This document shows positions 5,000 to 49,269 of a stretch of DNA of 52,687 nucleotides, piece after piece. Below the pieces are notes generated by a model. The model was not told the DNA's origin, searched no databases, and saw nothing but the letters and a program-made list of their open reading frames with translations. This DNA is from Candidatus Dojkabacteria bacterium (GTDB lineage: Bacteria > Patescibacteriota > Dojkabacteria > J137). A program made the translations under genes and the position numbers. Every line of letters starts with the position of its first letter. Position 1 is the first letter of the stretch. Location of the stretch: contig JAUZRK010000018.1 of NCBI GenBank assembly GCA_030950485.1, forward strand, positions 1-52,687. The letters run 5' to 3'.

Positions 5000-5042
5000 A
5001 TTTTTTATTATATAGAGATTTTTAGGGAGTGTCATCTTACAA

Positions 5043-5092
5043 GGTGACTGGATGTAAAGCAGAGTGTAAAGTTGTACAACCCTGCATCGGTG
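5043..5092 (+). repeat. Partial family-1 repeat (variant middle module), copy D'
   Basis: ggtgactggatgtaaagcagagtgtaaagttgtacaaccc is near-identical to the interior of copy E (9702-9738, gttgactggatgtaaagcagagtgtgaagttaaacaccc). Confidence 0.7.
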
Positions 5093-5103
5093 GTATATAA
5101 AAT

Positions 5104-5203
5104 CGCAGCGTAGAGGTCGCAGATCTGCGACCATGGGGCCTGGATAACAAGCACATGGTTTTAAGATTATACATCCAGGACGAATGTTGCACCCTACGCT
5201 GAG
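5104..5203 (+). repeat. GC-rich structured intergenic repeat (family 1), copy D (diverged)
   Basis: cagcgtagaggtcgcagatctgcgaccatgg ... cctggat/atccagg hairpin ... ccctacgctg. Same outer stem and first hairpin as copies C and E. Sits between the divergent ATPase and uvrB genes. Confidence 0.7.
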
Positions 5204-5243
5204 ATCTTTCGGGTTTTGGGAGAGAATGAGTTATAATCTATTT

Positions 5244-6479
5244 ATGGATTTTAAACTACACTCGAAATACAAACCTTCTGGAGATCAGCCGCAAGCAATT
5301 GATCTAATATCTAAAGGGATAGAAGCAGGTATTGAACATCAAACAGTCGTTGGAGCTACAGGAACTGGAAAAACTTTTACAGTCGCTAATATTATAGAGA
5401 AATTTAATAGACCGACAATAATAATCTCCCACAATAAAACTCTAGCAGCTCAACTTTTTTCTGAGTTTACTGAGTTCTTTCCAGAAAATGAAGTAGCTTA
5501 TTTTGTAAGTTATTACGATTACTATCAGCCTGAAGCTTACGTTCCCAGCAGAGACTTATATATTGAAAAAGATTCTGATATAAATGAAACAATAGAAAAA
5601 TATAGAAATACAGCAACCCAAGCGCTACTTTCTAGAAGAGATGTAATCATTGTAGCCTCTGTAAGTTGTATATACGGTCTTGGAAATCCAAGCGATTATA
5701 TTGAGCTTAGTTTAAAACTTAAAGTTGGAGATATTGTAAATAGAGATAAGCTTTCCCATAAGCTAATAGATATGCAATATGAACGAAGAATACATGATTT
5801 CCCAAATGGAAGTTATAGAGTTAGAGGAGAAATTATTGATATAAATTTAACTACTGCAAATGATGAAGCAGTAAGATTAGAATTTTTTGGCGAAGAAATT
5901 GAAGCGATAAAACTAATTAATCCAATTAGTGGGGAACTAATACAGCGTGTACCTGAAATATTGATTTTCCCAGCGAAACACTACGCTACTCCCCAGGAAA
6001 AATTAAAAGGAGCTATTGAGGAAATAAGAACTGATTTAGAAAAAGAAGTTAAAGCTTTTAGTGATAAAGGGCAAGATATGGAAGCCAATAGGCTTAGACA
6101 GAGGGTGAACTTTGATTTAGAAATGTTACAGGAAACTGGTTTTACAAAAGGTATTGAAAACTATTCAAGATATTTTGATAAAAGACCTCCAGGTTCATCA
6201 GGATCTTGTTTATTAGATTATTTTCCGGATGATTATCTAATGTTTATTGACGAGTCTCATATTACAGTTCCACAAGTTGGAGGTATGTATAGCGGAGATA
6301 GGGCTAGAAAGCAAAATCTTGTTGACTACGGTTTTCGATTAAAGGCAGCTATGGATAATAGACCTCTAAAGTTTGAAGAATTCCAAAAAAGAATTAATCA
6401 GGCAGTTTATTTGTCCGCAACTCCAAAAGAATACGAACTAGAAATTAGTAAGAAATCTACAAAAAAAGCACTCTCTTAG
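5244..6479 (+). pseudogene. uvrB: Excinuclease ABC subunit B, 3'-truncated (N-terminal two thirds only)
   Basis: KPSGDQPQAI, Walker A GATGTGKTF, YYDYYQPEAY, and DESH (FIDESHITVPQ) through LSATPKEYELE. It then ends at a TAG after about 411 aa from the 5244 start. Helicase domain 2 (motifs IV-VI) and the UvrC-binding C-terminus are absent. The next ORF is unrelated. Confidence 0.85.
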
Positions 6480-6508
6480 GAACAATTCTTTACGAAAAAA
6501 CAGATCTA

Positions 6509-7060
6509 ATGCTATTATTCAGAACAAATAATACGATAGATATGAGTCAAGTTGAGATATCAGAAATAGATTACGCAGGAGATTTTCTATCTGATACTTT
6601 AGTAAATCCAAGTTATGAAGCCTTGGCAGAGGTAGCTGAGATGGAGATAATGCCGGATGTAATAGTTGAGCGTGATGGTAATACAATTCCATTTGATACA
6701 CTAAAACAGATGGGAGTAATTGCATTAAGACAAGCAAAAGATCTAATATTGATTAGTGAACAGACTCAACACCTTTATACTTATAGGGGAGATACAGTAA
6801 AAGTCTTTAACACTAGCGATTCTGAAACACTTACAGCAATTGAAGATTGCCTTGATAACCCAGACTCCTGGAAAGTTTTTTTTAGAAGAACAAAAGAAGG
6901 AAAGTTAAATAGTATTGATTTTATTAGTGATAAAGAGCCATTAAGCATAAGGCTGTATTTACAATATCCACCTAAGAGCTCAAAATATAAAAGTAACGAT
7001 TATATTTATCTGATGCCTAGTTCGGTAAGTATTAAAATTTATGAAGAAAGAGAGGCTTAG
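6509..7060 (+). CDS. Hypothetical acidic protein occupying the position of the missing uvrB 3' part
   Basis: 183-aa ORF with ordinary coding composition and no motif I recognise. Followed by a strong hairpin terminator. Confidence 0.4.
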   Translation: MLLFRTNNTIDMSQVEISEIDYAGDFLSDTLVNPSYEALAEVAEMEIMPDVIVERDGNTIPFDTLKQMGVIALRQAKDLILISEQTQHLYTYRGDTVKVFNTSDSETLTAIEDCLDNPDSWKVFFRRTKEGKLNSIDFISDKEPLSIRLYLQYPPKSSKYKSNDYIYLMPSSVSIKIYEEREA

Positions 7061-7079
7061 TAATAAACTAAGCCTCTCT
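7049..7079. terminator. Bidirectional intrinsic terminator between convergent genes
   Basis: agagaggcttag / taataaa / ctaagcctctct: a perfect 12-bp stem with A/T-rich flanks on both sides. The 5' arm contains the TAG stop of 6509..7060. Confidence 0.75.
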
Positions 7080-7090
7080 TTATATTTTAA

Positions 7091-9010
7091 TTAAACCAAA
7101 ACTCCCTTAATTCTTCTCAATCCTGATCCAATATTCTCCTGTTTCTTTATCTTGAATTTCTTTCCGCCTTCTCCAATTACAGATGTATTATCAACATGTG
7201 GTCCTCCGCAGAACTCTTTAGAGAAAGCATCCTCAACAGAATCACCAATTACATAAACTGAAACAATATCAGGATATTTTTGACCAAATTCCATCTCTGC
7301 TCCTACTTTCTCAGCATCTGCTTTTGGCATTTCTACTCTTTCTACTTTTAATCCATCTTCTATTTTTTCATTTACAATTTTTTCTACTTCTTCAACTTGT
7401 TCAGGTGTTAACTTTGAATCGTAAGAAAAATCTATTCTTAGTCTTTCTCCAGTAATATTACTACCCCTTTGTTTAACATCTTCACCAAGAACCATCTGAA
7501 GAGCCTTTAATAATAGGTGATGAGTAGTATGCAGTTTTGTAGTTTCGTTTGAACTATCTGCTAATCCACCTTTGAATTTTCCCTCAGCGCCTGCTCTACT
7601 TGCAGCTTTGTGTTCTTCTTGTTTAAGATTAAATTCTTTAGTAATTTTTTCTACTTCAGATACTTCAGTGATTCCAAATTCTTCTAAAGACATTTCTAGA
7701 GGAAAACCGTAAGTTTCGTAGATAAAGAAAGCCGTTTCTCCATTTAATTTAAAATTAGAATCATTTTCAATCATCTTTTCTATTTCTTTTACACCCTTGT
7801 CTAAAGTTCTTCTAAACTTTATTTCTTCTTTTTCTATTTCATCGATAATAAATACTTCATTTTCTTTAAGATGAGGATACGATCCTTCCATCTTGCCAAT
7901 AACATCAATTGCTAAGTCCTTCGTGAAATTGTCTTCTATTCCAAGTTTCATTCCGTGTCTAATCATTCTTCTAATTAATCTCCTTAGAATATAACCCTGA
8001 TCTTTACCACTTGGAGCTACTCCATCAGCAAGAATAAAACTTGAAGATCTAGCATGCTCAGCTACAACTCTAAATGACTTTAGATTTTCATCTAAGACTT
8101 CTGGATTATATTTATTTCCAGATAGCATTTCTATTTTATTAAGAATAGGCTCGAACAAATCAGTTTCATAAATAGATCTTTTCCCTTGAGCTGCTGAAAT
8201 AATTCTATCTAAACCTCCTCCATAATCAATATTCTTTTGTTCCATTGGCACCCATTTACCATCATCAGTAAATTTATACTCCATAAATACATTATTACCA
8301 ACCTCAAGATATCTACCTGAATCATCATTAATATGTATAGCTTCATTAGTCTCATAAAGAATGCTTCCCATATCGTAGAATAACTCAGAGCTTGGACCTC
8401 CTAGTTCACCAGGTGTGTCTGGGCCTCTTTGCCACCAGTTATCACTCTTTCCATAAGGAAAGATTCTAAACTCCCAATCTTTTGTAGATGGTTCATCTCC
8501 TTGAGGTACATTTGTTAAATCATCAGAAAATTTAGCTGTTATTCCGTACTCTTTAAATGCTTTAACCCATAGTTCAATCGCTTCATCGTCTCTAGGTATT
8601 TCGTCATTACCTCCCCAAACTGAAACGTAAAGTCTATTAATATCTAATCCAAATTCCTCAACATATAATTTCAACATCCATGGAATTTGTTCTGCTTTTG
8701 TAAAATCACCTAAAGACCAGTTTCCAATCATTTCAAAAAGAACAAGATGGTTATAATCTCCAACTTCATCAATATCTATAGTTCTTATACATCTTTGAAC
8801 ATTAAATAAACGTGTACCTAATGGATGTGGTTCACCTCCTAAATAAGGAACTAATGGGAACATTCCTGAGTTTACAAAAAGTAATGTTGGATCATTTAAA
8901 GGCACTAATGATGCATTAGGAACTTGCTTTGCATTTCTTGGATCACTATTCCAATAATCAATAAATTTTTGACGAATTTGTTCTGAAGTATTTGTTTTTG
9001 AATTTATCAT
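7091..9010 (-). CDS. alaS: Alanine--tRNA ligase, short form without the C-Ala domain
   Basis: N-terminal class II core (FIDYWNS...LVPLNDPTLLFVNSGM...VQRCIRT). Editing-domain zinc motifs HTTHHLL and CGGPHV. 639 aa, ending shortly after the editing domain (GSGLRRIKGVLV). Confidence 0.92.
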   Translation of the reverse strand: MINSKTNTSEQIRQKFIDYWNSDPRNAKQVPNASLVPLNDPTLLFVNSGMFPLVPYLGGEPHPLGTRLFNVQRCIRTIDIDEVGDYNHLVLFEMIGNWSLGDFTKAEQIPWMLKLYVEEFGLDINRLYVSVWGGNDEIPRDDEAIELWVKAFKEYGITAKFSDDLTNVPQGDEPSTKDWEFRIFPYGKSDNWWQRGPDTPGELGGPSSELFYDMGSILYETNEAIHINDDSGRYLEVGNNVFMEYKFTDDGKWVPMEQKNIDYGGGLDRIISAAQGKRSIYETDLFEPILNKIEMLSGNKYNPEVLDENLKSFRVVAEHARSSSFILADGVAPSGKDQGYILRRLIRRMIRHGMKLGIEDNFTKDLAIDVIGKMEGSYPHLKENEVFIIDEIEKEEIKFRRTLDKGVKEIEKMIENDSNFKLNGETAFFIYETYGFPLEMSLEEFGITEVSEVEKITKEFNLKQEEHKAASRAGAEGKFKGGLADSSNETTKLHTTHHLLLKALQMVLGEDVKQRGSNITGERLRIDFSYDSKLTPEQVEEVEKIVNEKIEDGLKVERVEMPKADAEKVGAEMEFGQKYPDIVSVYVIGDSVEDAFSKEFCGGPHVDNTSVIGEGGKKFKIKKQENIGSGLRRIKGVLV

Positions 9011-11107: not shown

Positions 11108-13696
11108 TTATTTATTAATTTGTAATTTAAGTTCTTTCTCACTACTAAGTAGTATATCAACAATTTTATGAATTACTATAAAGCCTAAGACGAATAAAAT
11201 GTCTACTAAGAAAATGATCCAATAATATTTTATATCGAAAGGATCAGTTTGATAATAAGACCTGCTTGGAAAAATCAGTGCTAATACTACTAGTAGAGCC
11301 GGTATTAATACTGTAAATCTTTCAAACTTCCCTTCTAATTGGAGTTTCTTTAACCAAATATAGATAAAAATCGCCGTTACTATAGGCAATACAAATAAGA
11401 ATATAGCCATTTTAGGCTTATCTAAATATAGGTAGAATGGCATTGTACCTTGAAAGTATCCAAATATAGTTCCGAAGAAAAATAATGCAACCATGCTAAC
11501 TTTACTAGTAAGCTTCTTTGAATAATATGAAATACCGAAAGAGTAAATTAATGTCAGTGTTAGAAGTACATTTATTAGAAAAGTACTCTGTTCACCATAT
11601 GAAATTCCTTCAGTCTTTATTAAAATATAAGCTAAAAGCGATAGTAGACCCATTAGTATTCCACTAAGCCCTCCCGATAAGATTGTTTCTGAAACATAGT
11701 TTCTTTGATCAGTTACATTTTGTCTAGAAAATGAAATCGAATAACTTGGGAAAGTCGTACCGATAAAACTAAATAAAAGAACGGAGGTTGGATGAATGGG
11801 TAAAATTTCACCTTGAGCTGAAAAGAATGCTACTAAGACTAACATTAATATAGCTCTAGAAAAATAGATCATCGTATTTAATTTCAAATTAAATACAAGA
11901 TTATCTCCTTCGTAAAAAATTTCAGGAATTTTCTTATAATCATTATCAAGTAATACAATATCAGAAACATCTTTTGCAATTCTTGCACCGCTTTGCATCG
12001 AAATACTAACAGTTGCTGATTTCATTCCTAATACATCATTTATCCCGTCCCCAACCATAGCTACTCTCTTTCCTGGCTTTTTAATACTTTCTACAATAGC
12101 GTATTTATCTTCAGGAGTTGCTCTTGTGAATATTGTAGTGCCTGAATTAACTAAATCTTGTATTGAGCTATTATTCTCTAATAGATCAACAGCGTTAGAA
12201 GTATCAATGCCGACCTCTCTTGATATTTTTTCAACAGAAGCTAAGCTATCTCCAGATATAACTTTTATTTCTATTCCTTGCGAATAAAGTTGTTTGATTA
12301 CTTTTTTTATTCCAGGGTTTAATTTTTCTTTTATTCCAAATACTGCGACTTTTTCTGATTTAGCCTTTGTCTCAAATCCTTCTTTTAGACGATTGAATTC
12401 ATCTTCTTTATCAAACATTACAGCGATCAAAACTCTAAGCCCTTTTTTCTCCAATTTTTTAACTTCTTTAACAACTTCTGAACTATAAATTGATTCATCT
12501 ACTGATTTAACTAATCTAGAACCTGCTCCAATAACTACAGTTTTGTCTACTTTTTCACCAATATAAAAGGCACTGAATTTATTCTTCGAAGTAAATGGAA
12601 TTTGTTTTATATCATCTTCAGTTATATCTTCTAAATTCTCATAATTTATAAAAAATTCCTCAAGCGATTCACTAGTTTTATTACGACCCTGAATGTAACT
12701 GCTAACAGCTTTATATAGCTTACCAAGTTCATTTAAATCTAAATTAAAAGTCGTAGCATTTTCTACGGTCATTTTATTTGTAGTTATAGTACCTGTTTTA
12801 TCTATACATAAAACATCAACTCCTGCTAAATCGTCTACTGCTCCTCTCTTTTGAATTAAAACCCCTCTGTTAGATAGTTTAGTAATTGAAATTACAAAAC
12901 TTAAAGATATTAAAAATATTAATGTTTGGGGTATTACAACAGTAACAATTGCAGTTACACTTTTTAGAATTTCCGGATTAGAATATCCTGAGTCTTTTGT
13001 AAGAAAATAATGGATTAATGCGCTTAAAATACTTGTAGTAACAAAGAATACTATGAATTTCTCTCCTAAGCTTTCTAATTTACTTTTATTCTTTTTATAA
13101 CTAGTACTTTGTTCTCCAAGTTGGTTTAAATAATTATCTTTACCGACTTTATCAACTTGATATACTACCTCTCCAGTAATTATATAACTTCCAGATAAGA
13201 CATTATCACCTAAACCTCTTTCTATATAATGAGACTCTCCAGTTAAAGCTGATTCATCAAGTTGAAGGTATTTAGAATAAATTATTTTTCCATCAGTAAT
13301 AATTCCGTCACCTTCAGAGCCTAAAATATAATCACCTTTTACTATTTCATCAACAGAAATTTCTTCTACTTCATTATCTCGTATTACTCTGGCTGTTTTT
13401 TTAAATTCTTCAAGAAGTGACTCAAGTCTTCGCTTAATTCGAATTTCTTCATTCGAGTTTATTACTGCAGTTAAGACTATATATATACCAAAAATTGAAG
13501 TTTCAGCATAAAGTTTAAAGTACCCTAAAAGTAAAACTAAAGGGATTAAAACAATATTAACCGGACTTAAAATATTTCTCTTTATAATTGTTAGGTAAGT
13601 CGCTGAGTAACTATCTATTCTTTTATTACTTAAGCCTATCGATTTTCGTCTTGAGGCTTCTTCCCTAGATAATCCTTTTATATCGTTAAACTTCAT
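11108..13696 (-). CDS. P-type cation-transporting ATPase (divergent subtype)
   Basis: TGES (LTGESHYIE), DKTGTITTNKM, VISGDSLASV and GDGINDVLGM. The TM4 motif is IPQTL instead of PEGL. 862 aa with an extended hydrophobic C-terminus. Confidence 0.88.
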   Translation of the reverse strand: MKFNDIKGLSREEASRRKSIGLSNKRIDSYSATYLTIIKRNILSPVNIVLIPLVLLLGYFKLYAETSIFGIYIVLTAVINSNEEIRIKRRLESLLEEFKKTARVIRDNEVEEISVDEIVKGDYILGSEGDGIITDGKIIYSKYLQLDESALTGESHYIERGLGDNVLSGSYIITGEVVYQVDKVGKDNYLNQLGEQSTSYKKNKSKLESLGEKFIVFFVTTSILSALIHYFLTKDSGYSNPEILKSVTAIVTVVIPQTLIFLISLSFVISITKLSNRGVLIQKRGAVDDLAGVDVLCIDKTGTITTNKMTVENATTFNLDLNELGKLYKAVSSYIQGRNKTSESLEEFFINYENLEDITEDDIKQIPFTSKNKFSAFYIGEKVDKTVVIGAGSRLVKSVDESIYSSEVVKEVKKLEKKGLRVLIAVMFDKEDEFNRLKEGFETKAKSEKVAVFGIKEKLNPGIKKVIKQLYSQGIEIKVISGDSLASVEKISREVGIDTSNAVDLLENNSSIQDLVNSGTTIFTRATPEDKYAIVESIKKPGKRVAMVGDGINDVLGMKSATVSISMQSGARIAKDVSDIVLLDNDYKKIPEIFYEGDNLVFNLKLNTMIYFSRAILMLVLVAFFSAQGEILPIHPTSVLLFSFIGTTFPSYSISFSRQNVTDQRNYVSETILSGGLSGILMGLLSLLAYILIKTEGISYGEQSTFLINVLLTLTLIYSFGISYYSKKLTSKVSMVALFFFGTIFGYFQGTMPFYLYLDKPKMAIFLFVLPIVTAIFIYIWLKKLQLEGKFERFTVLIPALLVVLALIFPSRSYYQTDPFDIKYYWIIFLVDILFVLGFIVIHKIVDILLSSEKELKLQINK

Positions 13697-15343: not shown

Positions 15344-18130
15344 TTATTCAGCAAGCTCCTTCTCTCTATTTCTAATGTTGGCGATAAGATCCATTATTAC
15401 CTGAGCTTCGGCATCTGGTCTTTGCTCTAATTGAGTAATTATTCTTTTTAAAGACCTTCTTTGTTGGGCTATCTGTTCTCTTTCTCTATTCATTAAATTT
15501 ATATTGTCTTCAGATGTACCTGCTGCTGGATTTGTTCCAATCATTTCTCTAGATCTATTTATTCTATCTAGTAATGCAGCTGCAGACCTCTGATATCCTT
15601 CATTACCAATCCATCTAGGATTATTTTCATTGATTCTTCTGAAGTTTTCTCTCTCTATTCTAAGTATCAACTCTCTTTCTGCCTCCATTTCCTGATTATA
15701 TTGGTTTTCCCACCTTCTCTCTCTCTTATTAAGTTCATATCCATCTTCTCTATCTTTAACGGCAGGGAATTTAGCTTGAGCGTTTTCTCTTCTTGTTCTT
15801 ACCCTTTCATATAAGTTGACTAAATCATCTGTAGTTTCAACCACTGCGTTAATATCTAGCCCCATATAATTTTGAATAGCTTGTCTATAAACTGAATTAT
15901 CTATAGCTTTCTCTTTAAGGCTTTGATTCCTCTCTCTCAACGCTCTAATATCATCGTCCTCTTTAACTGTAATTTCATTTTGATTAAATTTCATAAGTAC
16001 TGCTCTTAATCTTACTTCATATTCGCTAAGTCTTTGCTCATTTCTTTTGATGACTCTTCCTTCACCTTCTAGTTCAAGCATAGCTAACTCGTCATCCTCA
16101 ATTCTCGTAGCTTTATTATTAGCCATATCTATATTAAGATAGGCTTGGTTTAAATTATTGACAACTTCATATCTCTCGTCTATTGTAAGTCTTACATTAT
16201 TCAGATCTCCTATAAGTTCTTGAATTATATTAGCTTCTCTATCTCTTCTCCTTAACAATCTCCATACAACTCCTTTCGCAGCTTCTGCTCTATCAGCTAA
16301 AGTATTTATCATTTCTCTAGTTCTTACTCGAATTGGATTTCCTATTGGAATATTATCGTCTGTCTCCTCAATAAAGTTTTCTGCTAGTGTGTCTTGTCCT
16401 TGATCAAGTATTTTAATATCGTCAATTACCTGTCTCTGTTCTTCGGGTGCTCCTGCCATTACTGCAGTAGTATATTCCCTCTTTCGTTCTACCTGATCTC
16501 CTTTTCTATAAGTGTAGATTCTATTATAATCTTCTCTAGTTAAGGCTTCACCTGCTAATATGATGCATTGGTTTGCTTTATCCCTTATCCTGGCCCACCG
16601 CCTTATATGATTTTGAATTGTTTTATCTTCTGAATCTGCAGCTAATTCCTCAAGATTTCTTTTAGCTGCTGGAAGCCTTTTGTCTCTCGCCTCGTCTCTT
16701 GCAGCTTTCATTTCCTCTGCTTCAGCTTCGTCTATTCTTTTATTTACATCTCTCTCATTAAGATTGTTAGCTGTTTGGTTGAATCGCTCGTTTGCAGTTG
16801 CTCTTCTTTCTAAGCTTATTCTTCTCGGCGTCAGCCCTGGAGAGTCTTCTGTATCATTTAATCTATTTCTACCTTGCTCATCATTTAAAAATCTTTCTGA
16901 TCTCTCCGTATTTGCTAGCACTGCTTCAGCGTCTCTAACATTATCAATAAATTCTGCTCCATTTTCTTCTGTCGTATCCCAGTATCTAGGATTATTCTCA
17001 TCTAAATCATTAAAACCTCTTTCTTCAGTAATCTCATCTCGTCTTGTTCTTCTATAATCTCTAACATGAGGTTCATTTAGTTCTAAAATTTCGAGACTTC
17101 GTCCATAAACTTCGTTCTGAATTTCTATCTCCTCGAAAACAACAATAGGAACGCTCCTTCCAGCGTTCACTTCTTCAGTTAAAGCTACTCTTTTCTGTTG
17201 ATTATTCTCAATTTTTTTTCTTATACCCTTAGCTGCTTCTGCCCTCCCTTTAACTGTGTCTCTTTCAGCAATTTTGGCTGCTTTTTGATAGGGAGCTAAT
17301 TCATTTCTAGCTGCTTGAAGCAATCTAAGATTACCAGCTGCGTCTCTTAAATTCTTTATTCTTTCTTCTTGACCAATTGGAATATTATTATCATCCATAG
17401 TTCTAGCTGCCTTTATCTGATCTATTTGAATTTCTAATGCATTTCCATAAACATTAGCTACATCAAACAATCTGCCGACAATGTCATCTCTAGTTTCAAT
17501 AGCCTCGACTAACATTGTAAACTTAGGATGATCCGTATCCATATAGTCCCCATCTTCAACAATAGCCTCTGTCATATTTTGTAGACTGGCAAGATCATTA
17601 AATACCTTTGCTAATTGGTTTAAACCAACATCAGCATAGTCTACAATATCGTTCGGATTATCTACATCTAGCTTTGCATTTTTCCCAAGCTGGAATATTT
17701 TTATTAGTTCTTCTATTTTTTTTCCTGAGGATAACTCAAAGCTCTTAAATCTAGTAGCAAATTCCTTCGGAGATAAAAGCAAAATCTGATCTAAGACAGC
17801 AGCTTCTGGAGTTTTTCGTTTAGCGCCAGCTCTATTAATTCTTCTAAACCTCTCAGGACTTAGTATAGAAGTTTCTCGTCTTGCATCTCTAATTTCTTTT
17901 CCATGTTCCAGCTGAAGATGTTTCTCCCATAATCTTCGTTCGTTTTTAGACATAGCATCCCCTACTATTTGAAGTTGTATATGTCGGTTAGCATTAGGCT
18001 GCAATGAAGGCTTTTCAAACCTTGTACTTAGTGGATCTCCTGTTTCTTTTATTATTAACTGCTTTTCTTGAGCCTCTGCCTCTAATGCTGCTGCTATTTG
18101 AGTATCCATTGTGGTTGCTGTATCAGCCAT
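15344..18130 (-). CDS. Giant hyper-charged Arg/Glu/Asn/Asp-rich repeat protein, function unknown
   Basis: 928 aa with no TM segment. Internal repeats: DDNIPIGQEERIKNLRDAAGN vs DDNIPIGNPIRVRTREMINTLAD, and ENNPRYWDTTEENG vs ENNPRWIGNEGYQ. Long predicted helical and coiled stretches. Confidence 0.7.
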   Translation of the reverse strand: MADTATTMDTQIAAALEAEAQEKQLIIKETGDPLSTRFEKPSLQPNANRHIQLQIVGDAMSKNERRLWEKHLQLEHGKEIRDARRETSILSPERFRRINRAGAKRKTPEAAVLDQILLLSPKEFATRFKSFELSSGKKIEELIKIFQLGKNAKLDVDNPNDIVDYADVGLNQLAKVFNDLASLQNMTEAIVEDGDYMDTDHPKFTMLVEAIETRDDIVGRLFDVANVYGNALEIQIDQIKAARTMDDNNIPIGQEERIKNLRDAAGNLRLLQAARNELAPYQKAAKIAERDTVKGRAEAAKGIRKKIENNQQKRVALTEEVNAGRSVPIVVFEEIEIQNEVYGRSLEILELNEPHVRDYRRTRRDEITEERGFNDLDENNPRYWDTTEENGAEFIDNVRDAEAVLANTERSERFLNDEQGRNRLNDTEDSPGLTPRRISLERRATANERFNQTANNLNERDVNKRIDEAEAEEMKAARDEARDKRLPAAKRNLEELAADSEDKTIQNHIRRWARIRDKANQCIILAGEALTREDYNRIYTYRKGDQVERKREYTTAVMAGAPEEQRQVIDDIKILDQGQDTLAENFIEETDDNIPIGNPIRVRTREMINTLADRAEAAKGVVWRLLRRRDREANIIQELIGDLNNVRLTIDERYEVVNNLNQAYLNIDMANNKATRIEDDELAMLELEGEGRVIKRNEQRLSEYEVRLRAVLMKFNQNEITVKEDDDIRALRERNQSLKEKAIDNSVYRQAIQNYMGLDINAVVETTDDLVNLYERVRTRRENAQAKFPAVKDREDGYELNKRERRWENQYNQEMEAERELILRIERENFRRINENNPRWIGNEGYQRSAAALLDRINRSREMIGTNPAAGTSEDNINLMNREREQIAQQRRSLKRIITQLEQRPDAEAQVIMDLIANIRNREKELAE

Positions 18131-18972: not shown

Positions 18973-21855
18973 TTATACTTGTGTGATAAGAGATATAGTT
19001 AGAGGATTAACTTTAGATTGATCACCATTTGATACTACTCCACCTATTTTGAATACTAGCGGTCGACTGTTTGCTGGAGCAGCTGCTGGTGATAAGATTG
19101 GAGGAGCATCAGTGAATAGAAACTTCTGAGCTGTTGTACTATATCTTCCCATTAAACCAACAACATCATTCCAATTATTGGCTCTAAATACAAGATCTAC
19201 TTTAATAGCAAAACTTTGCCCATTTACAGTAGGATAAGGATCTTGAGGTGTAGGGTCAGCTCCAGTCATACCTCTATTAGCTACAAGTAAATGTACTGAT
19301 GGACTAGAAGTTCTTGGATCTAATGTTCCAACTGCATTTACATTCTGAGGGTTAACACCTCCTGATGCAAAGTCAAATGCTTGTCCTGTACCCGGTGGAT
19401 TTATGTTTGTAGGAATACCTGGGTATAACTCAATTTCTGAATTAATACCTGCATATGGCCCCCCAAATCCATTTGCAGTTCTTCTAAATACTGTAGCTGC
19501 ATTGTTAGTACCTCTACTTTTAGCTTCTGCTATAACAATGTCATTTTTACTTACAACTGATCCGAATGAATAATTCTCAGCTGTAAATGAAACTTTAAAC
19601 CCTTTAAGAAGTACTTCATTAGTAGCCATAGATCTAAGAGGCATAGCCCCACCAACGAAATCATCGGGGATTGCTCCAAATTGTCCTAGAATACCTAATA
19701 GATTATCTTGCGTTAAAGTAATAGTTCCTCCGCTAACACCTGGACCTTTGAATTCTACTTTTAGAGCTCGTGGTTTATCTGGATCTTGCGATCTAGAGTT
19801 AGTACCCTCTCCTCCTAAGTTAGACTCGGCAGCATTTACTACTCCAAGTAGTAAATTACCAGCAGTTCTTGCAGTTAATCTAGATACAGCTGCCCTCGCG
19901 TCACCTAAAACTGTTCCATCTCCCTGTGACTCTTTTGCTGCTCCAACAAACTGTCTAATCCCCCCCATTTGTTTTCTATATGCATTTGATAAGATTCCAT
20001 CTGCTCCATTTAATTTTCTACCAGTAAAGGCAACTGACGTACTATTAGCAAGTCCCCCTGCCTTATTAATACCTTGTTTTCCATAATCGATACTCTGCTT
20101 CGCTAAATTAACACTATCCTTCGCAGAATTAAATGCATTAGTAAAGAATTTCGGTACTTTTATCTGAGTACCTAATTCATCATCAATCTGCTGCAAAGTA
20201 ACTGGAATATTAAGATAAATAGCAACAGCCATAATAGCCATCATAAACCCATTAACACCAGCAAAAACATCATCCGAATAACCAGCAATTACACCTAACC
20301 CACTCATAGGAGGAATATAAACTGTACCCGCAGAAGCAGGAATAGCAGCGGCGAAAGATTCATTTGAAAGAATTATTGCTAGTAGGAATAATAAATAGGT
20401 TGTTATATAAATAATACTAGCAGACCACATCATCTTTAAGAAATCCATTATAGCCTTTGTACCATTACCAGGTACTGCTACCGTAGCCATAAAAAACGGC
20501 GAAAATATTGGGAAAATTACAAAGATAATATATTTTTCAATTAGCTTCTTGAATATTCTAAATGAAGTTATAAAGAGTAGTATTGTTATTAAGAAATTTA
20601 TAATTTGTGCAAACCAGAATGATACTACTTCTGAATCACTTGCACCAGTTCCAGCTGAAGTGCCTCCAAATCCACCAAAGAAATCAATAACTCTAGCTAA
20701 GATAACAAATACTGAAAACTGTAAAAATCCACTTAATGGTCCTCCATTAGTACTTATATTAGTAAGCGAATCATCCAAAGTTCCAGCTATGTTGACTTGG
20801 AATGCTGAATTGTACCAAACTAATCTGTCGTCATTAGCATATAAGCCTCTATCAATAGGATTTCCTGTAGAATCCTTAGGCACTTTACCCTTACAATTTT
20901 CAGCTCCTCCTGAATTTAGCTCAGCTACTGTAGCATCATTACTACGTAGAAAATAAATACTTTTATCACTTCGTTCCACGAATTTAGTCTCCAAATACCT
21001 AGTTTCAGCCTTACTACAATTTCTGAGATCATAAACTACTCTAGCAGGAGATCCATTTCCTACGAGAAATTCATGCGCAATATCAGTACCTGCTGTAACA
21101 ATATCAATAAAAACCGCAGAAATAGGATAACTTAAAGGGACTAGTATCATTGCCAGTGCAATATTTGGAATAGCACTTTGGATAGTAACTGAAGCTCCAC
21201 CGCTAAGTCTCGCTCTAAACATAATTGCGAAAGCAACTCCTACAATAAGGAAAATTAAAATTCCATAAACTACATTAACCGACCATCCCCAGAAAGCTTG
21301 AATAGGTTTAAGTAAAGAATAACCAGTACCTGGATAATATACACTTGGATCGTTTTGAGCATTTACACTTCCAAAATTACTTAACGCATAGACTTGTTGT
21401 TCAACATAGCTTCTTGAACTAGCAGGTCTTTGTTCTAGCAATTCAATTGTTAGATTTTGCATAGAAAGCACAAGTCCTCTATTTTGTGATTCTGGAAGAG
21501 TTCCATTTAAATATCCATATATATAGTTAACCGCTTTTGGGTCAGTAGCTAGTAGTTCAATATTACCGCAATCTTCAGGTGCTAAATCAGAATTTTGATT
21601 TGCCCCTTTAATTCCATCAATAAAATTAATAAATCCACCTTCACTAATTGATGACATAAAATCAGGTACTATACCAACGGCTTCTGATGAACGACAGTTC
21701 TCAAGTGTTGCTGAAACTTCAGGGTTAGTAAAATCCAGAAGAAAGCTTCTTCCAATTGATTTAGCAGATGTACTAGACAAAAAGAAAAACCCTATTACTG
21801 ATATAAAAACCAGTAGTAGCAAAGCTAATATTTTAACTCTTTTCCCTTTATACAT
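18973..21855 (-). CDS. 960-aa polytopic envelope protein (VirB6/TrbL-like topology, inferred)
   Basis: N-terminal signal/anchor MYKGKRVKILALLLLVFISVIGFFFL. An extracytoplasmic domain of about 170 aa. Two blocks of multiple TM helices (about aa 190-260 and 370-560). A Gly/Asn/Pro-rich soluble C-terminal region of about 400 aa. Confidence 0.7.
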   Translation of the reverse strand: MYKGKRVKILALLLLVFISVIGFFFLSSTSAKSIGRSFLLDFTNPEVSATLENCRSSEAVGIVPDFMSSISEGGFINFIDGIKGANQNSDLAPEDCGNIELLATDPKAVNYIYGYLNGTLPESQNRGLVLSMQNLTIELLEQRPASSRSYVEQQVYALSNFGSVNAQNDPSVYYPGTGYSLLKPIQAFWGWSVNVVYGILIFLIVGVAFAIMFRARLSGGASVTIQSAIPNIALAMILVPLSYPISAVFIDIVTAGTDIAHEFLVGNGSPARVVYDLRNCSKAETRYLETKFVERSDKSIYFLRSNDATVAELNSGGAENCKGKVPKDSTGNPIDRGLYANDDRLVWYNSAFQVNIAGTLDDSLTNISTNGGPLSGFLQFSVFVILARVIDFFGGFGGTSAGTGASDSEVVSFWFAQIINFLITILLFITSFRIFKKLIEKYIIFVIFPIFSPFFMATVAVPGNGTKAIMDFLKMMWSASIIYITTYLLFLLAIILSNESFAAAIPASAGTVYIPPMSGLGVIAGYSDDVFAGVNGFMMAIMAVAIYLNIPVTLQQIDDELGTQIKVPKFFTNAFNSAKDSVNLAKQSIDYGKQGINKAGGLANSTSVAFTGRKLNGADGILSNAYRKQMGGIRQFVGAAKESQGDGTVLGDARAAVSRLTARTAGNLLLGVVNAAESNLGGEGTNSRSQDPDKPRALKVEFKGPGVSGGTITLTQDNLLGILGQFGAIPDDFVGGAMPLRSMATNEVLLKGFKVSFTAENYSFGSVVSKNDIVIAEAKSRGTNNAATVFRRTANGFGGPYAGINSEIELYPGIPTNINPPGTGQAFDFASGGVNPQNVNAVGTLDPRTSSPSVHLLVANRGMTGADPTPQDPYPTVNGQSFAIKVDLVFRANNWNDVVGLMGRYSTTAQKFLFTDAPPILSPAAAPANSRPLVFKIGGVVSNGDQSKVNPLTISLITQV

Positions 21856-22110: not shown

Positions 22111-23286
22111 CTAAAGTCTTTTTATAGCGTCAACAAAGAAAGTGAAATTGGCTAATCCACCATTTTCTAACCTGGCTACTCCTTTAAAAACATAAATTGG
22201 ATATGTATAACCTGCCCAATCTTCTGGCTCCCAGTAAGCAAGCTCAGTTCTTGTAGCATCAACTCTAAATTCAGTTACAGCAACATTCGTGCTTAGATTC
22301 GCAAAATAATCTGTATTACTATCCTGGAAATATACTAAACTTCCATTACCTCTTTGTAAATTAGTTAATGCTTCATCTGGAGTAACTACTTCATATAAAG
22401 CAGGAGTACTATAATCAAAATCAACAAAATCAATTGAAAAAACATCACTTGGGTAATTTTTAAGTTGGTTGGAAACGATTAGATTTACCTGCCCCTCTCT
22501 TGGATCTGTAGAATATACCTTTCCAACTGTGTTTTCAGGGACTGTTTCTCTATAAGCTTCTGGTATTTCCTCTCTAACCCTTACTATCGATTGAGGTAAT
22601 TTTCTAAAAATACTAATGAATACAAAATCTGCTTCATTTACGGTTTCTGCTTCAAAAAAGATACCGTCTAAACCTAATACAGAATATCTAATTTCAGCTT
22701 GCCCACTAGATAGGCCTAATCCTGTAAATCCTAGTGAATTGAGCAATTCTTTTGCTTCAGACGCGTAGTAAGTTATATCACTAGATATTGATTTAAGACC
22801 AAGAGCTGCTGCGTTTTCATACCAATCTGTAGTCATCTCCCATTTTCTAGTCGAAGTATTAAAAGTAATTTGTTTTGTAGAGTTATCTTTTCCCCAAAGA
22901 TATTCTGTTGCTGGAATTAATTCAGTAAAATTATCAGGACTAAAGCCTAATATACTAATTGTATCTCTAGCGTTATCGAAAGTATCAAGTTTCTCTCTTG
23001 GTTTTTCTACTGCATAAACATACGCGGTATCTGGAAAAGCCAAGTGAAAATTTTGTCTTATAATAGGAGTAGACTTATTATATTGTAGACTAGGTATTTG
23101 GGGCACGCTAATTTCTCCATAAAGTCTATCTGCTGGTACCCAGTAAGAAAATTTTTCTTCTGCTACCGGTAATGCTTTTTCATTATAGCTACTCAATGTT
23201 TGGAAAATCATTAAGATAACTATTAATACAAGCAAAAAGACGAAAATCTTTCTGTTTCTATTTGTTTGATCGTATAAAGATGCCAA
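22111..23286 (-). CDS. Bitopic exported protein, function unknown
   Basis: 391 aa, TTG start, N-terminal anchor KIFVFLLVLIVILMIF, then a large mixed alpha/beta extracytoplasmic region. Co-oriented with the block. Confidence 0.6.
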   Translation of the reverse strand: MASLYDQTNRNRKIFVFLLVLIVILMIFQTLSSYNEKALPVAEEKFSYWVPADRLYGEISVPQIPSLQYNKSTPIIRQNFHLAFPDTAYVYAVEKPREKLDTFDNARDTISILGFSPDNFTELIPATEYLWGKDNSTKQITFNTSTRKWEMTTDWYENAAALGLKSISSDITYYASEAKELLNSLGFTGLGLSSGQAEIRYSVLGLDGIFFEAETVNEADFVFISIFRKLPQSIVRVREEIPEAYRETVPENTVGKVYSTDPREGQVNLIVSNQLKNYPSDVFSIDFVDFDYSTPALYEVVTPDEALTNLQRGNGSLVYFQDSNTDYFANLSTNVAVTEFRVDATRTELAYWEPEDWAGYTYPIYVFKGVARLENGGLANFTFFVDAIKRL

Positions 23287-23365
23287 GTTTTAATCGTAAC
23301 TTTATATATAATAGAGTAAAAAGTCGAAAGTTTAAAGATAACTATAACCTACAACCTAAAAACTA

Positions 23366-23866
23366 CTAAATACTTCCATCAGGAATAACATCAAGAACAT
23401 TAATACCAATAATTCTAAGTATAACCACACTGAAAACAAGTACAGCAAGTCCTGCTAAAGTCGCAAAGAATTTCTCTCTAGCCTCAACAATTTTAGCTTC
23501 TTGTCCTGATTGATACATTAATCCAGCTAAAATAAGTTGAATAAGAGCAACACCACCCATAACTCCAAAAGCAATTCTAATCATTCCAGTTACAAGACCC
23601 AGAGGTGTTACATCTAGACAACCAATAACAATCCAAATACCTCCTTGAATTATACAATTATTACAAAGCAAAAACTCTTGCTCTCCTGCTGCATCAAAAG
23701 CATTATTAGCTTTGCAAAGATCATATTTAGTACGGTCAACAAGCTCTGTACAACAACCATCATTAATATCCCCGGCAGCTTGTGGAGCTTGTATATTAGG
23801 CTGATTACCTCCACCGACTGGTTGATTTAAAACTACAAGATCTAAATTTCTTTGACCAATTATATT
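23366..23866 (-). CDS. Cys-rich VirB2/TrbC-like two-helix (pilin-like) domain, open in frame from the upstream gene's TAA
   Basis: DGCCTELVDRTKYDLCKANNAFDAAGEQEFLLCNNCIIQGGIW, then two hydrophobic helices (IRIAFGVMGGVALIQLILAGLMY / FFATLAGLAVLVFSVVILRIIG) separated by the polar loop QSGQEAKIVEAREK. The first start codon (TTG, 23671) falls after most of the Cys-rich region. The frame is open back to the TAA at 23867-23869. Ends TAG TAG. Confidence 0.55.
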   Translation of the reverse strand, partial: NIIGQRNLDLVVLNQPVGGGNQPNIQAPQAAGDINDGCCTELVDRTKYDLCKANNAFDAAGEQEFLLCNNCIIQGGIWIVIGCLDVTPLGLVTGMIRIAFGVMGGVALIQLILAGLMYQSGQEAKIVEAREKFFATLAGLAVLVFSVVILRIIGINVLDVIPDGSI

Positions 23867-24587
23867 TTATGTAGATCTATCGTAGGCTGCAATTGTTACA
23901 GTAGCCTCATCACTTATAAAACTATATGTTGCTGTAAAAGTCCCATCTGCATTTACGTCTACTATATCAAGATCGTTAAATGGGGCAACAAACATTCCTG
24001 AAATGGGATCTATTAGTCCAAATCTAATAACGTTTTGAAAAAGGCACCCTGAAATTGATACAATATAGCTGTTCTGGGCTGTAACTGTTGCGGCTCCAAA
24101 ACTTATTGTACTATTTCCTTGACAATTATCATTTACAGTAGCTGCATCTACTAAAGTAATTGTATTTTCACAAGTTTCCCTACTTCGATTAGTAGCTATA
24201 ATATTTACAGCTGAAAAGTCTACTACAGAAAATGGACTTGAATTACTAATTTCTATATTTAAGAAATCAAGCTGCTGCGCTAGAGGTATATTAACTTGAT
24301 TATTAATATCAAGATAATTTTCTAATGGTATTGGGCTTTTATTATTATCAAAATCTTCTTCATAATATTCTACTGCTGGATTAAATGGAGCGCTTAATGA
24401 TAAGGGTAATGTTAATCCATTCCCTCTTCTTACTAATTCAGCAGTAAACACTATTGGTGAACCTGCTGGTGTAATTGAACCCTCTGTTACATTAATTGAA
24501 AAAGAATTTGTTTGCGCATCTACTAAATACGAAAAATAGCGAATTAGTAATAACAATAGTTATTAAAAATATTATCTTAGACTTCAT
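23867..24587 (-). CDS. Secreted beta-rich protein; the signal peptide is in a different frame (frameshift at an A5/T5 run)
   Basis: The ATG at 24587 encodes MKSKIIFLITIVITNSLFF.., which stops after 31 codons. The main 229-aa frame begins ..YLVDAQTNSFSINV. Removing one T from the run at 24532-24536 joins them into a canonical signal peptide with a VDA/Q cleavage site. Confidence 0.6.
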
Positions 24588-24686
24588 CTTATATCTATTA
24601 ATATGTTTCTCTTAAACTATTCTATATTATTAATAATCACATTGCTAACCCATTGAAAGCTTAAAGATAAATATCTTGATTTGAAA

Positions 24687-25535
24687 TTACTGCCCATTTC
24701 GTGGAGCTGCATTTGGATTATTGTGAGGTAATCTTTTTAACTGAGGCATCTGTATTTGTTTAGGTATAGGTACATTAACGAAGTTATTATGTACTTGAGG
24801 AACTTGTTGATTTTGCAGAGGTTGTCCCGTTGGAATATTTACATTGATTGTTTGATGTATAGGTTGAACAGGTGCGCTTGGTAACTGATGTGAATTCATA
24901 GGTTGGATTGAAGGATATTGTCTTTGAACAACATTCACTCTTCTCTTTTTTTCTTCATTTTTATTACTTCTTTCAATAAGACTTTTAATAAATGAATCAG
25001 AAGTTATATCAAAAATTACTACAAGTATTAGAACTATTACTGTAGATAAATAGATTCTATCTTCTAAGAATGTTAAATTAGTAATATTTCTAGTCCATTG
25101 AGTTAAATTTATAATTAATTTTGAAAAGCTGTTTTGGTCGCTACTTACTAAAAATAGATTAAGAACTAAACGTATAAATATAACTCCTTCTACTATTTTA
25201 AAGAAAGTATCAATTACGTTTAATATTATCGTCGATGCTTTGTCATAAAGAAACGCAGTAACTATTTCTGATATTAAAATTCCTCCAATAACTATAAATA
25301 CTAAAGCTGCTAAGGCATCAGCATTTAAATCCTGAAAGTCGGATCCTTCGTCAATAACAAAAATGCCTTTAAAAGGTGTGATAAAAATGTCTGAGATTAC
25401 ATTTATAAGATTTACAAGAAAGTTTTCATCATTTGCATTAAATGTGTCAAGTGTAACTCGTAGAAATAGAAATACAGCTATAAAGCCAGCTATAGCTAAA
25501 ATGATTCCTCTAACTCTAATTCTAAAATCTCTCAT
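24687..25535 (-). CDS. YggT-like integral membrane protein (two YGGT-like repeats) with a Gln/Pro-rich tail
   Basis: FLFLRVTLDTFNANDENFLVNLINVISDIFITPFKGIF and VIFIRLVLNLFLVSSDQNSF resemble the YggT repeat. The C-terminal 90 or so aa are low-complexity Q/P/N-rich. Confidence 0.5.
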   Translation of the reverse strand: MRDFRIRVRGIILAIAGFIAVFLFLRVTLDTFNANDENFLVNLINVISDIFITPFKGIFVIDEGSDFQDLNADALAALVFIVIGGILISEIVTAFLYDKASTIILNVIDTFFKIVEGVIFIRLVLNLFLVSSDQNSFSKLIINLTQWTRNITNLTFLEDRIYLSTVIVLILVVIFDITSDSFIKSLIERSNKNEEKKRRVNVVQRQYPSIQPMNSHQLPSAPVQPIHQTINVNIPTGQPLQNQQVPQVHNNFVNVPIPKQIQMPQLKRLPHNNPNAAPRNGQ

Positions 25536-42309: not shown

Positions 42310-43337
42310 TCATTTCCTAGTCTTCTCCTCAGCCTCTAAAACAATTCTAAACGCATCTTCTAAAGAAGTAGCTGTAAAAGAACAACCAGCAGCATATAAA
42401 TGGCCACCACCACCAGGAAAAGACATAGCAATATCTCTAACTTCTCTTTTCCCAAATTGCGATCTAAAACTTGCACCCCATTGATTTTCAACTCCACATT
42501 CCTTTTTTACTAAAAATCCCCACTCTACTCCTTCTATATTTCTAAGATAAAGATCACTAAAATAATGTTTCGCAAGACCTGCATCTGCTCTATCCTCTTC
42601 AGGTATATCAAGTAGATAAGTATAAGCGAAATTATCTTTATATCTTGTATTTTCAATAAGCTTAATTAAATACTCATTAGCTTTCTTTGTAAGTTTATAA
42701 CTATGTTTCAAAATAGATTTTGGATCAACTTTAGCGTAATCGTAAAGATCTACAAATATTTCATAAGTCTGACTTTTTGGTTTTTCAAACTGGAAATTGT
42801 TAGTGTCTGAAATAACACCTATTTGAATTAGTTCTGCTATATATTTCGAGACTATTAAATCCTCTTTAAAATACCTCTAAAGCCTGTATATATTTCTTCA
42901 GTTGCAGACGCAAGAGCTCTATCTATATGTATGTCTACTCTATGTAATAAATCATTTTGATGATGATCTATTACAAGAATATTGTTATCTTCAATCATTT
43001 TAAAATCAGCATTATCAAAACACCTGCCTAAATCTGAAGCATCGACAATTACTAATGTATCGTACTTATCTAAGAATATCTCATCAAAGCTTTCAATATA
43101 ATTACTTAGAATTTTCTTTAGATCTCTAATACTAGAGATTGGCGTTGAAGGTTTTCCTTCAAGTCGAATATCTATATCTTGAATATTATTATAATGAATA
43201 CTTGCTAGCTCTTTAAATAATAGACAGCTTGCTGCTGCGTCAATATCCGCTCCTTGATGTGAGATTACTAAAATATTAGTAGCTTTCTTTAATGATGAAT
43301 CTAATTTTTCTAATGCAACTTCTATATTATCTTGCAT
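42310..43337 (-). pseudogene. Second NrnA-like DHH/DHHA1 phosphoesterase, split by a 1-nt frameshift
   Basis: ORF 42855..43337 carries DIDAAAS and VIDHHQN and ends ..FRGILKRI*. The frame of ORF 42310..42711 (GGGGH) is open upstream to 42870 and reads ..EDLIVSKYIAELIQIGVISDTNN.., colinear with the intact paralogue (FREVLNKDLVITELQAKLIQIGIISDSAG). The switch lies at the T3A4 run 42865-42871. Confidence 0.75.
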
Positions 43338-48603: not shown

Positions 48604-49269
48604 TTAATAAAAGTAATCTATAATATCATAAATGTTATTTACATTGGATCTCTTGTCTTCTAGGTTAAAGTCTGAGGAAACGTATTTCCAGTCTACTGGA
48701 AGATTATGTTTTAAATGATTTGAGTTTATATAAGTCAGATGTTTGGTGAAATCGTTGTGATTTCGAATGTAATGGTCGTGGAATGATTTTTGCCATTTGA
48801 ATTTTGGGTAAATATTTGGCATATTCTCTTTCAATATATCCAGTTCATTAGCAAACTTATCTATCTTTGCTTTAGGTTGATAATACCGATAATGAAGGCG
48901 ACAATGGCCATTGTCGCCTTCATTATCTCCGGTTAGATTGTAATTCTTTAAAGCTCCATCGCTGCATCCCATTGCTATATTTATATTTCTTGAAACATGT
49001 CTTTTTAAAAACTGCATAATTTTCGAATGATTCCCAATCTCATAATTAGGTTTGATTAACAAATGAAAATGATCATACATTAATGCAAAACCATATAGTT
49101 TAAACTTATGTATTTCCTTACATAAAATTAGCTCTTTCATCCAAATCTCAGCTAAATATGAATCTTCAAAGTAAGGATATCTCTTAAATGTATTTGATGT
49201 AATGAAATATATTAAGTTCTCATTATTAATTCTCTTTTGTGAATCTTTATGAAATTTGCCGAATTTCAT
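48604..49269 (-). CDS. IS200-like Y1 (HUH) transposase / REP-associated tyrosine transposase (RAYT)-like
   Basis: HUH motif YDHFHLLIKP. Late FKWQKSFHDHYIR and the catalytic-Tyr region HLTYINSNHLKH. Single gene without a tnpB partner. Carries a REP-like palindrome inside an insertion between the two motif regions. Confidence 0.75.
   Translation of the reverse strand: MKFGKFHKDSQKRINNENLIYFITSNTFKRYPYFEDSYLAEIWMKELILCKEIHKFKLYGFALMYDHFHLLIKPNYEIGNHSKIMQFLKRHVSRNINIAMGCSDGALKNYNLTGDNEGDNGHCRLHYRYYQPKAKIDKFANELDILKENMPNIYPKFKWQKSFHDHYIRNHNDFTKHLTYINSNHLKHNLPVDWKYVSSDFNLEDKRSNVNNIYDIIDYFY
48888..48927. repeat. Perfect 40-nt palindrome (REP-like hairpin, family 2) inside the RAYT coding sequence
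   Basis: gataatgaaggcgacaatgg|ccattgtcgccttcattatc. Read in frame on the minus strand it encodes DNEGDNGHCRLHY. GC-rich relative to the gene. Confidence 0.95.

Follow-up and report, generated by a model that had tools for sequence, protein, structure and literature searches.

A broken gene for a secreted protein with a pilin-like membrane anchor on a Dojkabacteria contig: probably a recent pseudogene

Introduction

Contig JAUZRK010000018.1 of the Candidatus Dojkabacteria assembly GCA_030950485.1 (52,687 nucleotides, analyzed as one stretch and hereafter termed the window) carries on its minus strand, between 24587 and 23366, three consecutive coding pieces that are not joined in one reading frame. 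Are these independent small genes, or a single gene that has been interrupted, and what then is the nature of the interruptions? Gene callers list two separate genes here, of 229 and 101 amino acids (aa), and both stand in the public record as “hypothetical proteins.” A sequence-only reading of the same DNA had proposed one gene, in which a signal peptide is displaced by a frameshift and a secreted domain is continued, past a TAA stop codon, by a Cys-rich, TrbC/VirB2-type pilin module. Comparison with a paralogue and with related loci supports a single gene, the product of which would be a secreted surface protein anchored in the membrane by a pilin-like domain. As for its present state, we favor a very recent pseudogene of a redundant paralogue over programmed frameshifting and readthrough, and would put the probability of this at roughly 55%. 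The TAA should not be taken for a working junction, and the joined product cannot be made from the gene as written.

Layout of the Locus

The features of the locus are listed below. “Tail” denotes the frame that follows the TAA, and tail residues are numbered from its first codon.

24492..24587, minus strand: displaced Sec-type signal peptide open reading frame (ORF) of 31 codons, starting at ATG 24587; it reads MKSKIIFLITIVITNSLFFVFSRCANKFFFN* and begins MKSKIIFLITIVITNSLF
24532..24536, minus strand: frameshift lesion in a T5 homopolymer (gene positions 52-56)
23870..24556, minus strand: variable ectodomain, the body of the 229-aa ORF, with its annotated start at TTG 24556
23867..23869, minus strand: in-frame TAA stop, opposite a Ser codon (AGT) in the intact paralogue, with homology on either side
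23771..23866, minus strand: Gly/Gln/Pro-rich linker (tail residues 1-32), modeled with a predicted local distance difference test (pLDDT) score below 50
23618..23758, minus strand: Cys-rich module (tail residues 37-83; CC..C..CxxC..GGIWxxIGC)
23669..23671, minus strand: TTG from which gene callers start the 101-aa ORF, inside the conserved Cys module
23393..23605, minus strand: two long hydrophobic helices (tail residues 88-120 and 123-158), a T4SS_pilin/VirB2-like hairpin
23366..23392, minus strand: conserved C-terminal end (..LDVIPDGSI), closed by TAG 23368-23366 as the true stop
22111..23286, minus strand: gene for a 391-aa bitopic protein (hereafter the partner), directly downstream and 79 bp from the stop of the fusion gene

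The signal peptide ORF lies where the sequence-only reading had placed it. Its frame is lost past the T run and ends at 24492, and the 229-aa ORF (TTG 24556..23867) sits one frame off. As that reading had also foreseen, dropping one T from the run restores the frame and brings signal peptide and ectodomain together as MKSKIIFLITIVITNSLFSYLVDA/QTNS (..NSLFSYLVDA/QTNS). The Ala-Gln junction proposed as the cleavage site holds, but the residues quoted before it (...SLFFSYLVDA) contained one F too many, the correct joined reading being ...NSLFSYLVDA. The same Ala-Gln junction is found in the paralogue and in several relatives. The joined N-terminus has a basic n-region followed by hydrophobic residues 3-24 (Kyte-Doolittle 19-residue mean 1.93), and hydropathy of the full 406-aa joined product adds stretches at residues 305-358 and 371-403, i.e., an N-terminal hydrophobic segment and a two-helix hairpin, as expected from the earlier reading. 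The T5 run at 24532-24536 is one of five such runs in the gene.

Past the TAA at 23867 the same frame stays open, as described earlier, for 166 codons up to the TAG at 23368-23366, a length with a chance probability of ~1e-6 at the base composition of the window. The earliest ATG, GTG or TTG in this frame is indeed TTG 23671. It encodes tail residue 66; the CC at residues 38-39 and C51 of the Cys-rich module precede it, and as a native start it is not plausible.

An Intact Paralogue and 20 Relatives Carry the Layout in Single Frames

A protein search with the joined product returned 18 homologues besides the window's own ORF. The best of them, P0002, is a 475-aa hypothetical protein (Q9M91_06875) encoded on contig JAUZSD010000019.1 of the metagenome-assembled genome (MAG) GCA_030949735.1, on a different contig of the same genome. 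Signal peptide, ectodomain, linker, Cys module and hydrophobic hairpin follow one another there within a single ORF that is free of frameshifts and internal stops. Its homology to the window runs across the TAA within one tblastn high-scoring segment pair (24178..23369; 52.6% identity over 293 residues), and the stop falls opposite the Ser codon (window “TIAAYDRST*NII..VVLNQPV,” paralogue “..YLKATSNIG..QVLQQPV”). Over the last 101 residues the two proteins are 95% identical, and alignment is also possible in the Cys module and at the ends of the linker. The paralogue ectodomain is longer, very divergent and only distantly alignable, and the window ectodomain is homologous only to its N-domain. 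DNA identity over the last 302 bp is only 79%, so the paralogue is an old duplicate rather than a recent copy or an assembly repeat. Its neighbors, elongation factor P and mraZ/rsmH/penicillin-binding protein genes, differ from those in the window.

More distant relatives were collected with a profile of the C-terminal 135 residues (alignment A1; 15 rows, the window sequence being one of them). It recovered 20 loci from other Dojkabacteria-like genomes, and in every one of these the match forms the end of an ORF of 251-762 aa that runs without interruption. A signal peptide stands at the start of 19, and the remaining one is cut by a contig end. The layout that they have in common is a signal peptide, a variable ectodomain, a Cys motif and a two-helix hairpin, and none of the 20 has a frameshift or internal stop. 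The window's stop-to-stop segment 23866..23369 matches A1 at E 7.9e-57, a value to be read with the window itself among the A1 rows; in the alignment its identity is 86% with the paralogue and 31-60% with the remaining members. It is thus homologous to the family but broken, and departs from it in lacking one uninterrupted ORF from signal peptide to hairpin.

The sequence-only reading had raised the alternative that relatives possess a separate small pilin gene at this position; among the 20 related loci, none was found to replace the fused ORF. That the three pieces are one gene is therefore supported, by homology, through the paralogue and all 20 relatives. An extra 130-aa pilin-like ORF is present in a Doudnabacteria locus (L022), directly downstream of an intact 586-aa fusion. 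A Dojkabacteria locus (L017, MAG BIN12) has two tandem long pilin-fusion genes (5244-6755 and 6780-8300) after its partner gene. Together these two loci indicate that the family duplicates locally.

The family is large. Among 1.84 billion representative proteins, 9,889 relatives of A1 were found at E<=1e-3, and of the 150 best library representatives, 143 have a length of 231 aa or more and carry the domain at their very C-terminal end. The seven short ones of these 150 include mini-forms of 141-161 aa made up of a signal peptide, the Cys motif and the hairpin. The pilin-fusion family is found mainly in Dojkabacteria.

The Frame Past the TAA Has Been Under Purifying Selection

Nei-Gojobori counts between window and paralogue give, for the 166 codons past the TAA, a proportion of synonymous differences (pS) of 0.75, which is saturated, and a proportion of nonsynonymous differences (pN) of 0.18. 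In the 93 codons of the hairpin core pN falls to 0.029, with 53 synonymous differences, and in the Cys module upstream of TTG 23671 dN/dS is ~0.1. Past the TAA, no further stops or indels separate the two genes. Judged by these counts, the frame past the TAA has evolved as coding sequence. The pattern implies that the whole tail, including the part beyond reach of an independent start, was translated essentially since the duplication, and the freedom from other stops and indels means that the interruption is either very recent or not real.

The C-Terminal Domain Resembles VirB2-Like Pilins

The C-terminal hairpin is read as homologous to the small VirB2-like “T4SS_pilin” proteins of Candidate Phyla Radiation (CPR) bacteria. 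Thirteen of the 15 family members match PF18895 (T4SS_pilin) at E<=1, the best at E 2.8e-9, and two of them individually exceed its gathering score of 26.6 bits (P0009 with 26.9 bits and P0019 with 34.5 bits; the others lie below). Matches to PF04956 (TrbC/VirB2) are weak and limited to four of the 15 (best E 0.005), with individual scores of 7-16.5 bits against a gathering score of 27.9 bits. The window's own gene pieces gave nothing meaningful against Pfam and NCBIfam. The TrbC/VirB2-type identity proposed by the sequence-only reading thus stands for the family and falls for direct matches of the window copy, which would join PF18895 by transitive homology only.

AlphaFold2 modeled the window tail, with 74 aligned relatives, at pLDDT ~90 for residues 61-150. 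The model shows two long antiparallel helices (88-120 and 123-158), preceded by a helix (62-73) and a beta-hairpin (77-84; GGIWIVIGC), and C71, G82 and C83 are invariant among 74 family members. In the model of the intact paralogue the ectodomain has pLDDT below 50, too low to bear on the beta-rich character proposed by the sequence-only reading or on an adhesin fold. A signal peptide and two hydrophobic helices with a short polar loop, the basic plan of such pilins, are present, the signal peptide being in frame only once the frameshift is repaired. The loop that joins the two helices is short and basic (YQSGQEAK..AREK). By sequence, neither the family profile nor the ectodomain, the partner or the 960-aa membrane protein encoded beyond it found a match in the PDB.

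How might an intact member work? The window interval 24587..23366 can be read as a gene for a Sec signal peptide, an ectodomain, a linker, a Cys-stapled helix and beta-hairpin, and a membrane hairpin. The signal peptide would drive export of the ectodomain and Cys module, after which the hairpin would insert, its basic loop facing the cytoplasm. Such an orientation, expected under the positive-inside rule, would leave the ectodomain and Cys module outside the cell. The variable domain would thereby be displayed on the cell surface, or possibly on a polymer of pilins.

The last residues of the domain (..RIIG[IV]N[VI]LD[VI].P.G[ST][IVF]) are as conserved as the helices in alignments A1 and A3, which is unusual for a tail outside the membrane. 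One may speculate, by analogy with cyclised TrbC/VirB2 pilins, that this extreme C-terminus is a processing or recognition signal.

Are the Lesions Real, and What Do They Mean?

A second version of the locus (L001; contig JAUZSD010000017.1 of MAG GCA_030949735.1) could be compared with the window over 20.6 kb. The two versions differ by four one-base homopolymer indels, two transitions and one 50-bp indel (difference positions 32869, 22841, 21990, 18279, 18261, 17165 and 23321); the 50-bp indel is flanked by ACTTTCGACTTT direct repeats and lies just downstream of the fusion gene. Two of the homopolymer differences break genes in L001: the Mur ligase is intact at 495 aa in the window but split into 332+172 aa in L001, and the 391-aa partner is intact in the window but split into 125+241 aa. 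The interval 23366-24587 is identical in both, and each version has the T5 run and the TAA. Both lesions are therefore probably real, as they are common to two versions that disagree elsewhere, with the window the better of the two at the informative sites. Two further observations point the same way: the only other frameshifted gene found in the window, one of two DHH/DHHA1 phosphoesterase genes, also has an intact paralogue, which adjoins it, and the fusion locus itself has been rearranged (see below).

Under the favored reading, the intact paralogue on another contig made the window copy redundant and allowed its recent inactivation. The +1-base frameshift in T5 would sever the signal peptide, and the TAA would split the ectodomain from the linker. 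As written, the gene could give only a 31-residue peptide, a 229-aa ectodomain with no export signal, or a 101-aa hairpin that lacks the signal peptide and half of the Cys module.

Several results weigh against this reading, either in its account of the lesions or in its assignment of the anchor to a pilin family. The rival that they mainly serve holds that the gene is intact in the organism and that the extra T, perhaps with the TAA, is a consensus error of the metagenome. That this assembly project contains such errors is clear from the homopolymers at which the two versions differ by one base, and the frameshift is itself located in a homopolymer. Strong purifying selection with no other damage (no decay at all in the downstream frame, core pN near 0.03) is equally expected of an intact gene with two consensus errors. 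An independent copy was not found either: searched with the joined protein, genome and metagenome contigs yielded neither a closer orthologue nor a second copy, a wobble-tolerant DNA pattern spanning the TAA found none in metagenome contigs, and exact-protein look-ups of the 229-aa and 101-aa products gave nothing beyond the same NCBI contig. On the pilin side, the window tail and core match neither PF18895 (not even at E<=10) nor PF04956, and when the confidently modeled tail was compared with PDB structures by Foldseek, nothing came up but chance matches between helices (best E 1.3). No VirB4, VirD4, VirB6, VirB3/PrgI or other named type IV secretion system (T4SS) gene was recognized among the scanned window ORFs (several small ORFs were unscanned), nor, in precomputed Pfam annotation, within ~10 kb of L001, L024 and L025/L026 (the flanks of L003-L022 were unscanned), so the link to a pilus is one of homology. 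Yet consensus error would have to account for both lesions in versions that differ elsewhere. The TAA requires a substitution, not a homopolymer miscount, and two errors within one 1.2-kb gene would be a coincidence, since the essential genes scanned in the window (alanyl-tRNA synthetase, UvrC, MraY-type transferase, deformylase and Mur ligase) are intact. We regard an intact gene misread in assembly as a real possibility, though not the one to prefer.

The remaining explanations accept the sequence as it stands and give it a function, and each is improbable. The pieces could be a working pair of separate genes, an ectodomain ORF and a 101-aa hairpin ORF started at TTG 23671 that would be a minimal pilin. 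Gene callers do annotate both, small family members of 141-161 aa exist, and the short N-tail before the first helix might allow translocation with no signal peptide. Against this, every small member has its own signal peptide and a complete Cys motif, the TTG falls within the conserved Cys module, where the stretch preceding it is under constraint, in no relative is the fused ORF replaced by a small pilin gene, and the 229-aa ORF has no credible export signal, its N-terminus MLLLIRYFSYLV lacking a basic n-region and carrying an Arg in the core. Such a split is hardly to be expected. Phase variation, in which slipped-strand changes of the T run would switch a surface protein on and off and the assembly would have caught the OFF state, has in its favor that a homopolymer at the 5' end of a variable surface-protein gene is a classic site for a contingency locus, and that a variable paralogue exists. 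T5, however, is short for efficient slippage, there are four other T5 runs in the gene, the run has the same length in both contig versions, and the TAA would block the product even in the ON state; we consider this very unlikely. Programmed recoding is less credible still: a +1 slip on CUA-UUU-UUC and readthrough of the UAA would yield a low level of the 406-aa protein and so regulate a surface protein. U-UUU-U is slippery in principle, the slip gives exactly the joined reading, and the downstream frame is under purifying selection. But neither feature occurs in any of 21 homologous genes (the paralogue and 20 relatives), the A site is occupied by UUC, an ordinary codon, nothing resembling a stimulatory element was noticed, and Rfam and tRNA scans were empty. 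TAA is moreover the commonest stop in the window, ending 34 of its 57 ORFs, and stop-codon reassignment was rejected on that ground. We know of no precedent for two different recoding events in one gene. A broader proposal would join several of these ideas. The lesions would be real and tolerated and the gene still expressed, with occasional +1 slippage on the U run and low-level UAA readthrough (or variation in T-run length) giving small amounts of a pilin-anchored variable surface protein as a contingency switch for host contact in an epibiotic CPR bacterium. Separately, the long family, adjoined by its partner and away from recognized T4SS genes, would be an undescribed surface-display or pilus-adhesin system of Dojkabacteria. 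This combined proposal we hold to be a long shot.

Gene Neighborhood

The partner has 26 homologues, all unnamed and devoid of Pfam domains. In 13 of the 20 related loci a pilin-fusion gene follows it directly on the same strand; L017 is one of these, the partner there preceding the first of the two tandem copies. The relatives' order is partner, fusion, ATP-dependent DNA ligase and YggT-like membrane protein, converging on uvrC and then an MraY-type transferase gene. On the minus strand of the window the order is uvrC, YggT-like gene, fusion, partner and a 960-aa polytopic protein, and the ligase is absent. Fusion and partner are thus inverted in order relative to the relatives, yet adjacent on the same strand. 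A single inversion fails to derive the window order from that of the relatives, so several rearrangements are needed. The ancestral position of the fusion gene is the 255-bp spacer that follows the partner; it was searched for a remnant of a deleted copy, and none was found.

The gene order at 22111-25535 was also seen to be unlike that in L004, L007, L010-L015, L017, L018, L020, L021, L024 and L025. The 960-aa polytopic membrane protein (18973-21855, minus strand) has a long Gly/Ala/Pro-rich C-terminal region and no Pfam, NCBIfam or PDB match; a clear nearby homologue of it is present only in L004. A 928-aa protein, also encoded downstream of the partner (15344-18130, minus strand), is extremely charged (E/R/K/N-rich), likewise with no Pfam, NCBIfam or PDB match, and is probably a coiled-coil.

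Comparison With Known Systems

Classical TrbC/VirB2 pilins are small proteins that are processed and cyclised, and to our knowledge none has a large N-terminal ectodomain. The PF04956 proteins (RP4 TrbC, Agrobacterium VirB2) and the window family have in common the general plan of a leader peptide and a two-helix hairpin, but profile matches lie far below the gathering score and there is no structural match in the PDB. Closer are the small VirB2-like pilins of CPR bacteria, in which a signal peptide is likewise followed by two hydrophobic helices with a short loop. The present family differs from them in having 200-600 ectodomain residues between signal peptide and hairpin. A study of CPR type IV secretion describes the VirB2-like pilins (PF18895) of Patescibacteria/CPR as small, often encoded near virB4 and arranged in tandem arrays, and term searches of its text turned up no long pilin fusions (bioRxiv 10.1101/2025.01.22.634366).

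In other genomes, the nearest counterparts are the long pilin-fusion genes of other Dojkabacteria (P0004, P0006, P0008; L003-L021). Like the window gene, these encode a signal peptide, an ectodomain, the CxxC..GGxW..GC motif and the hairpin, adjoin a 391-aa partner, and lie near a YggT-like gene, uvrC and an MraY-type transferase gene. Unlike that of the window, their ectodomains are Cys-rich, and the sequences are unrelated.

For annotation, the 229-aa and 101-aa “hypothetical proteins” of the public record are best regarded as two fragments of one broken gene, to be flagged as a pseudogene or possible assembly error and not as separate proteins or a small pilin. The finding is in itself an ordinary one, a single paralogue, either broken or wrongly assembled, from a CPR family that is widespread, and the broken copy shows little beyond the turnover of family paralogues. 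The long pilin-fusion family is little described, and the more interesting by-product is its architecture, its 391-aa partner and its distance from recognized T4SS genes. Most of the best-scoring members have a large variable ectodomain mounted on a VirB2-like hairpin, and if these long fusions are surface-displayed, they would be candidate host-contact proteins of epibiotic CPR bacteria.

Other Observations in the Window

The DHH/DHHA1 phosphoesterase genes are tandem paralogues. The upstream copy (44376-43327, minus strand) is intact at 349 aa, and the downstream copy (43337..42310, minus strand) is split into ORFs of 160 aa (43337-42855) and 133 aa (42711-42310). Its frameshift lies near 42865-42875, in the context GGTATTTTAAAG, where a tblastn alignment with the intact neighbor passes from frame 1 to frame 3.

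The uvrB ORF (5184-6479, plus strand) is truncated at 431 aa (..YELEISKKSTKKALS*), with its ResIII/DEAD and UvrB-interaction domains present. Beyond the truncation the other two frames are stop-rich, and the next ORF (6509-7060, plus strand; 183 aa) has no family match; motif searches of the whole window did not find the helicase-C half of UvrB. A 221-aa ORF at 48604-49269 (minus strand) has a weak match to IS200-like Y1 transposases (PF01797, E 1.2e-5). Finally, two P-type (E1-E2) cation ATPases are encoded within 10 kb (2552-5134 and 11108-13696, both minus strand) and are only ~24% identical, as estimated indirectly from tblastn.

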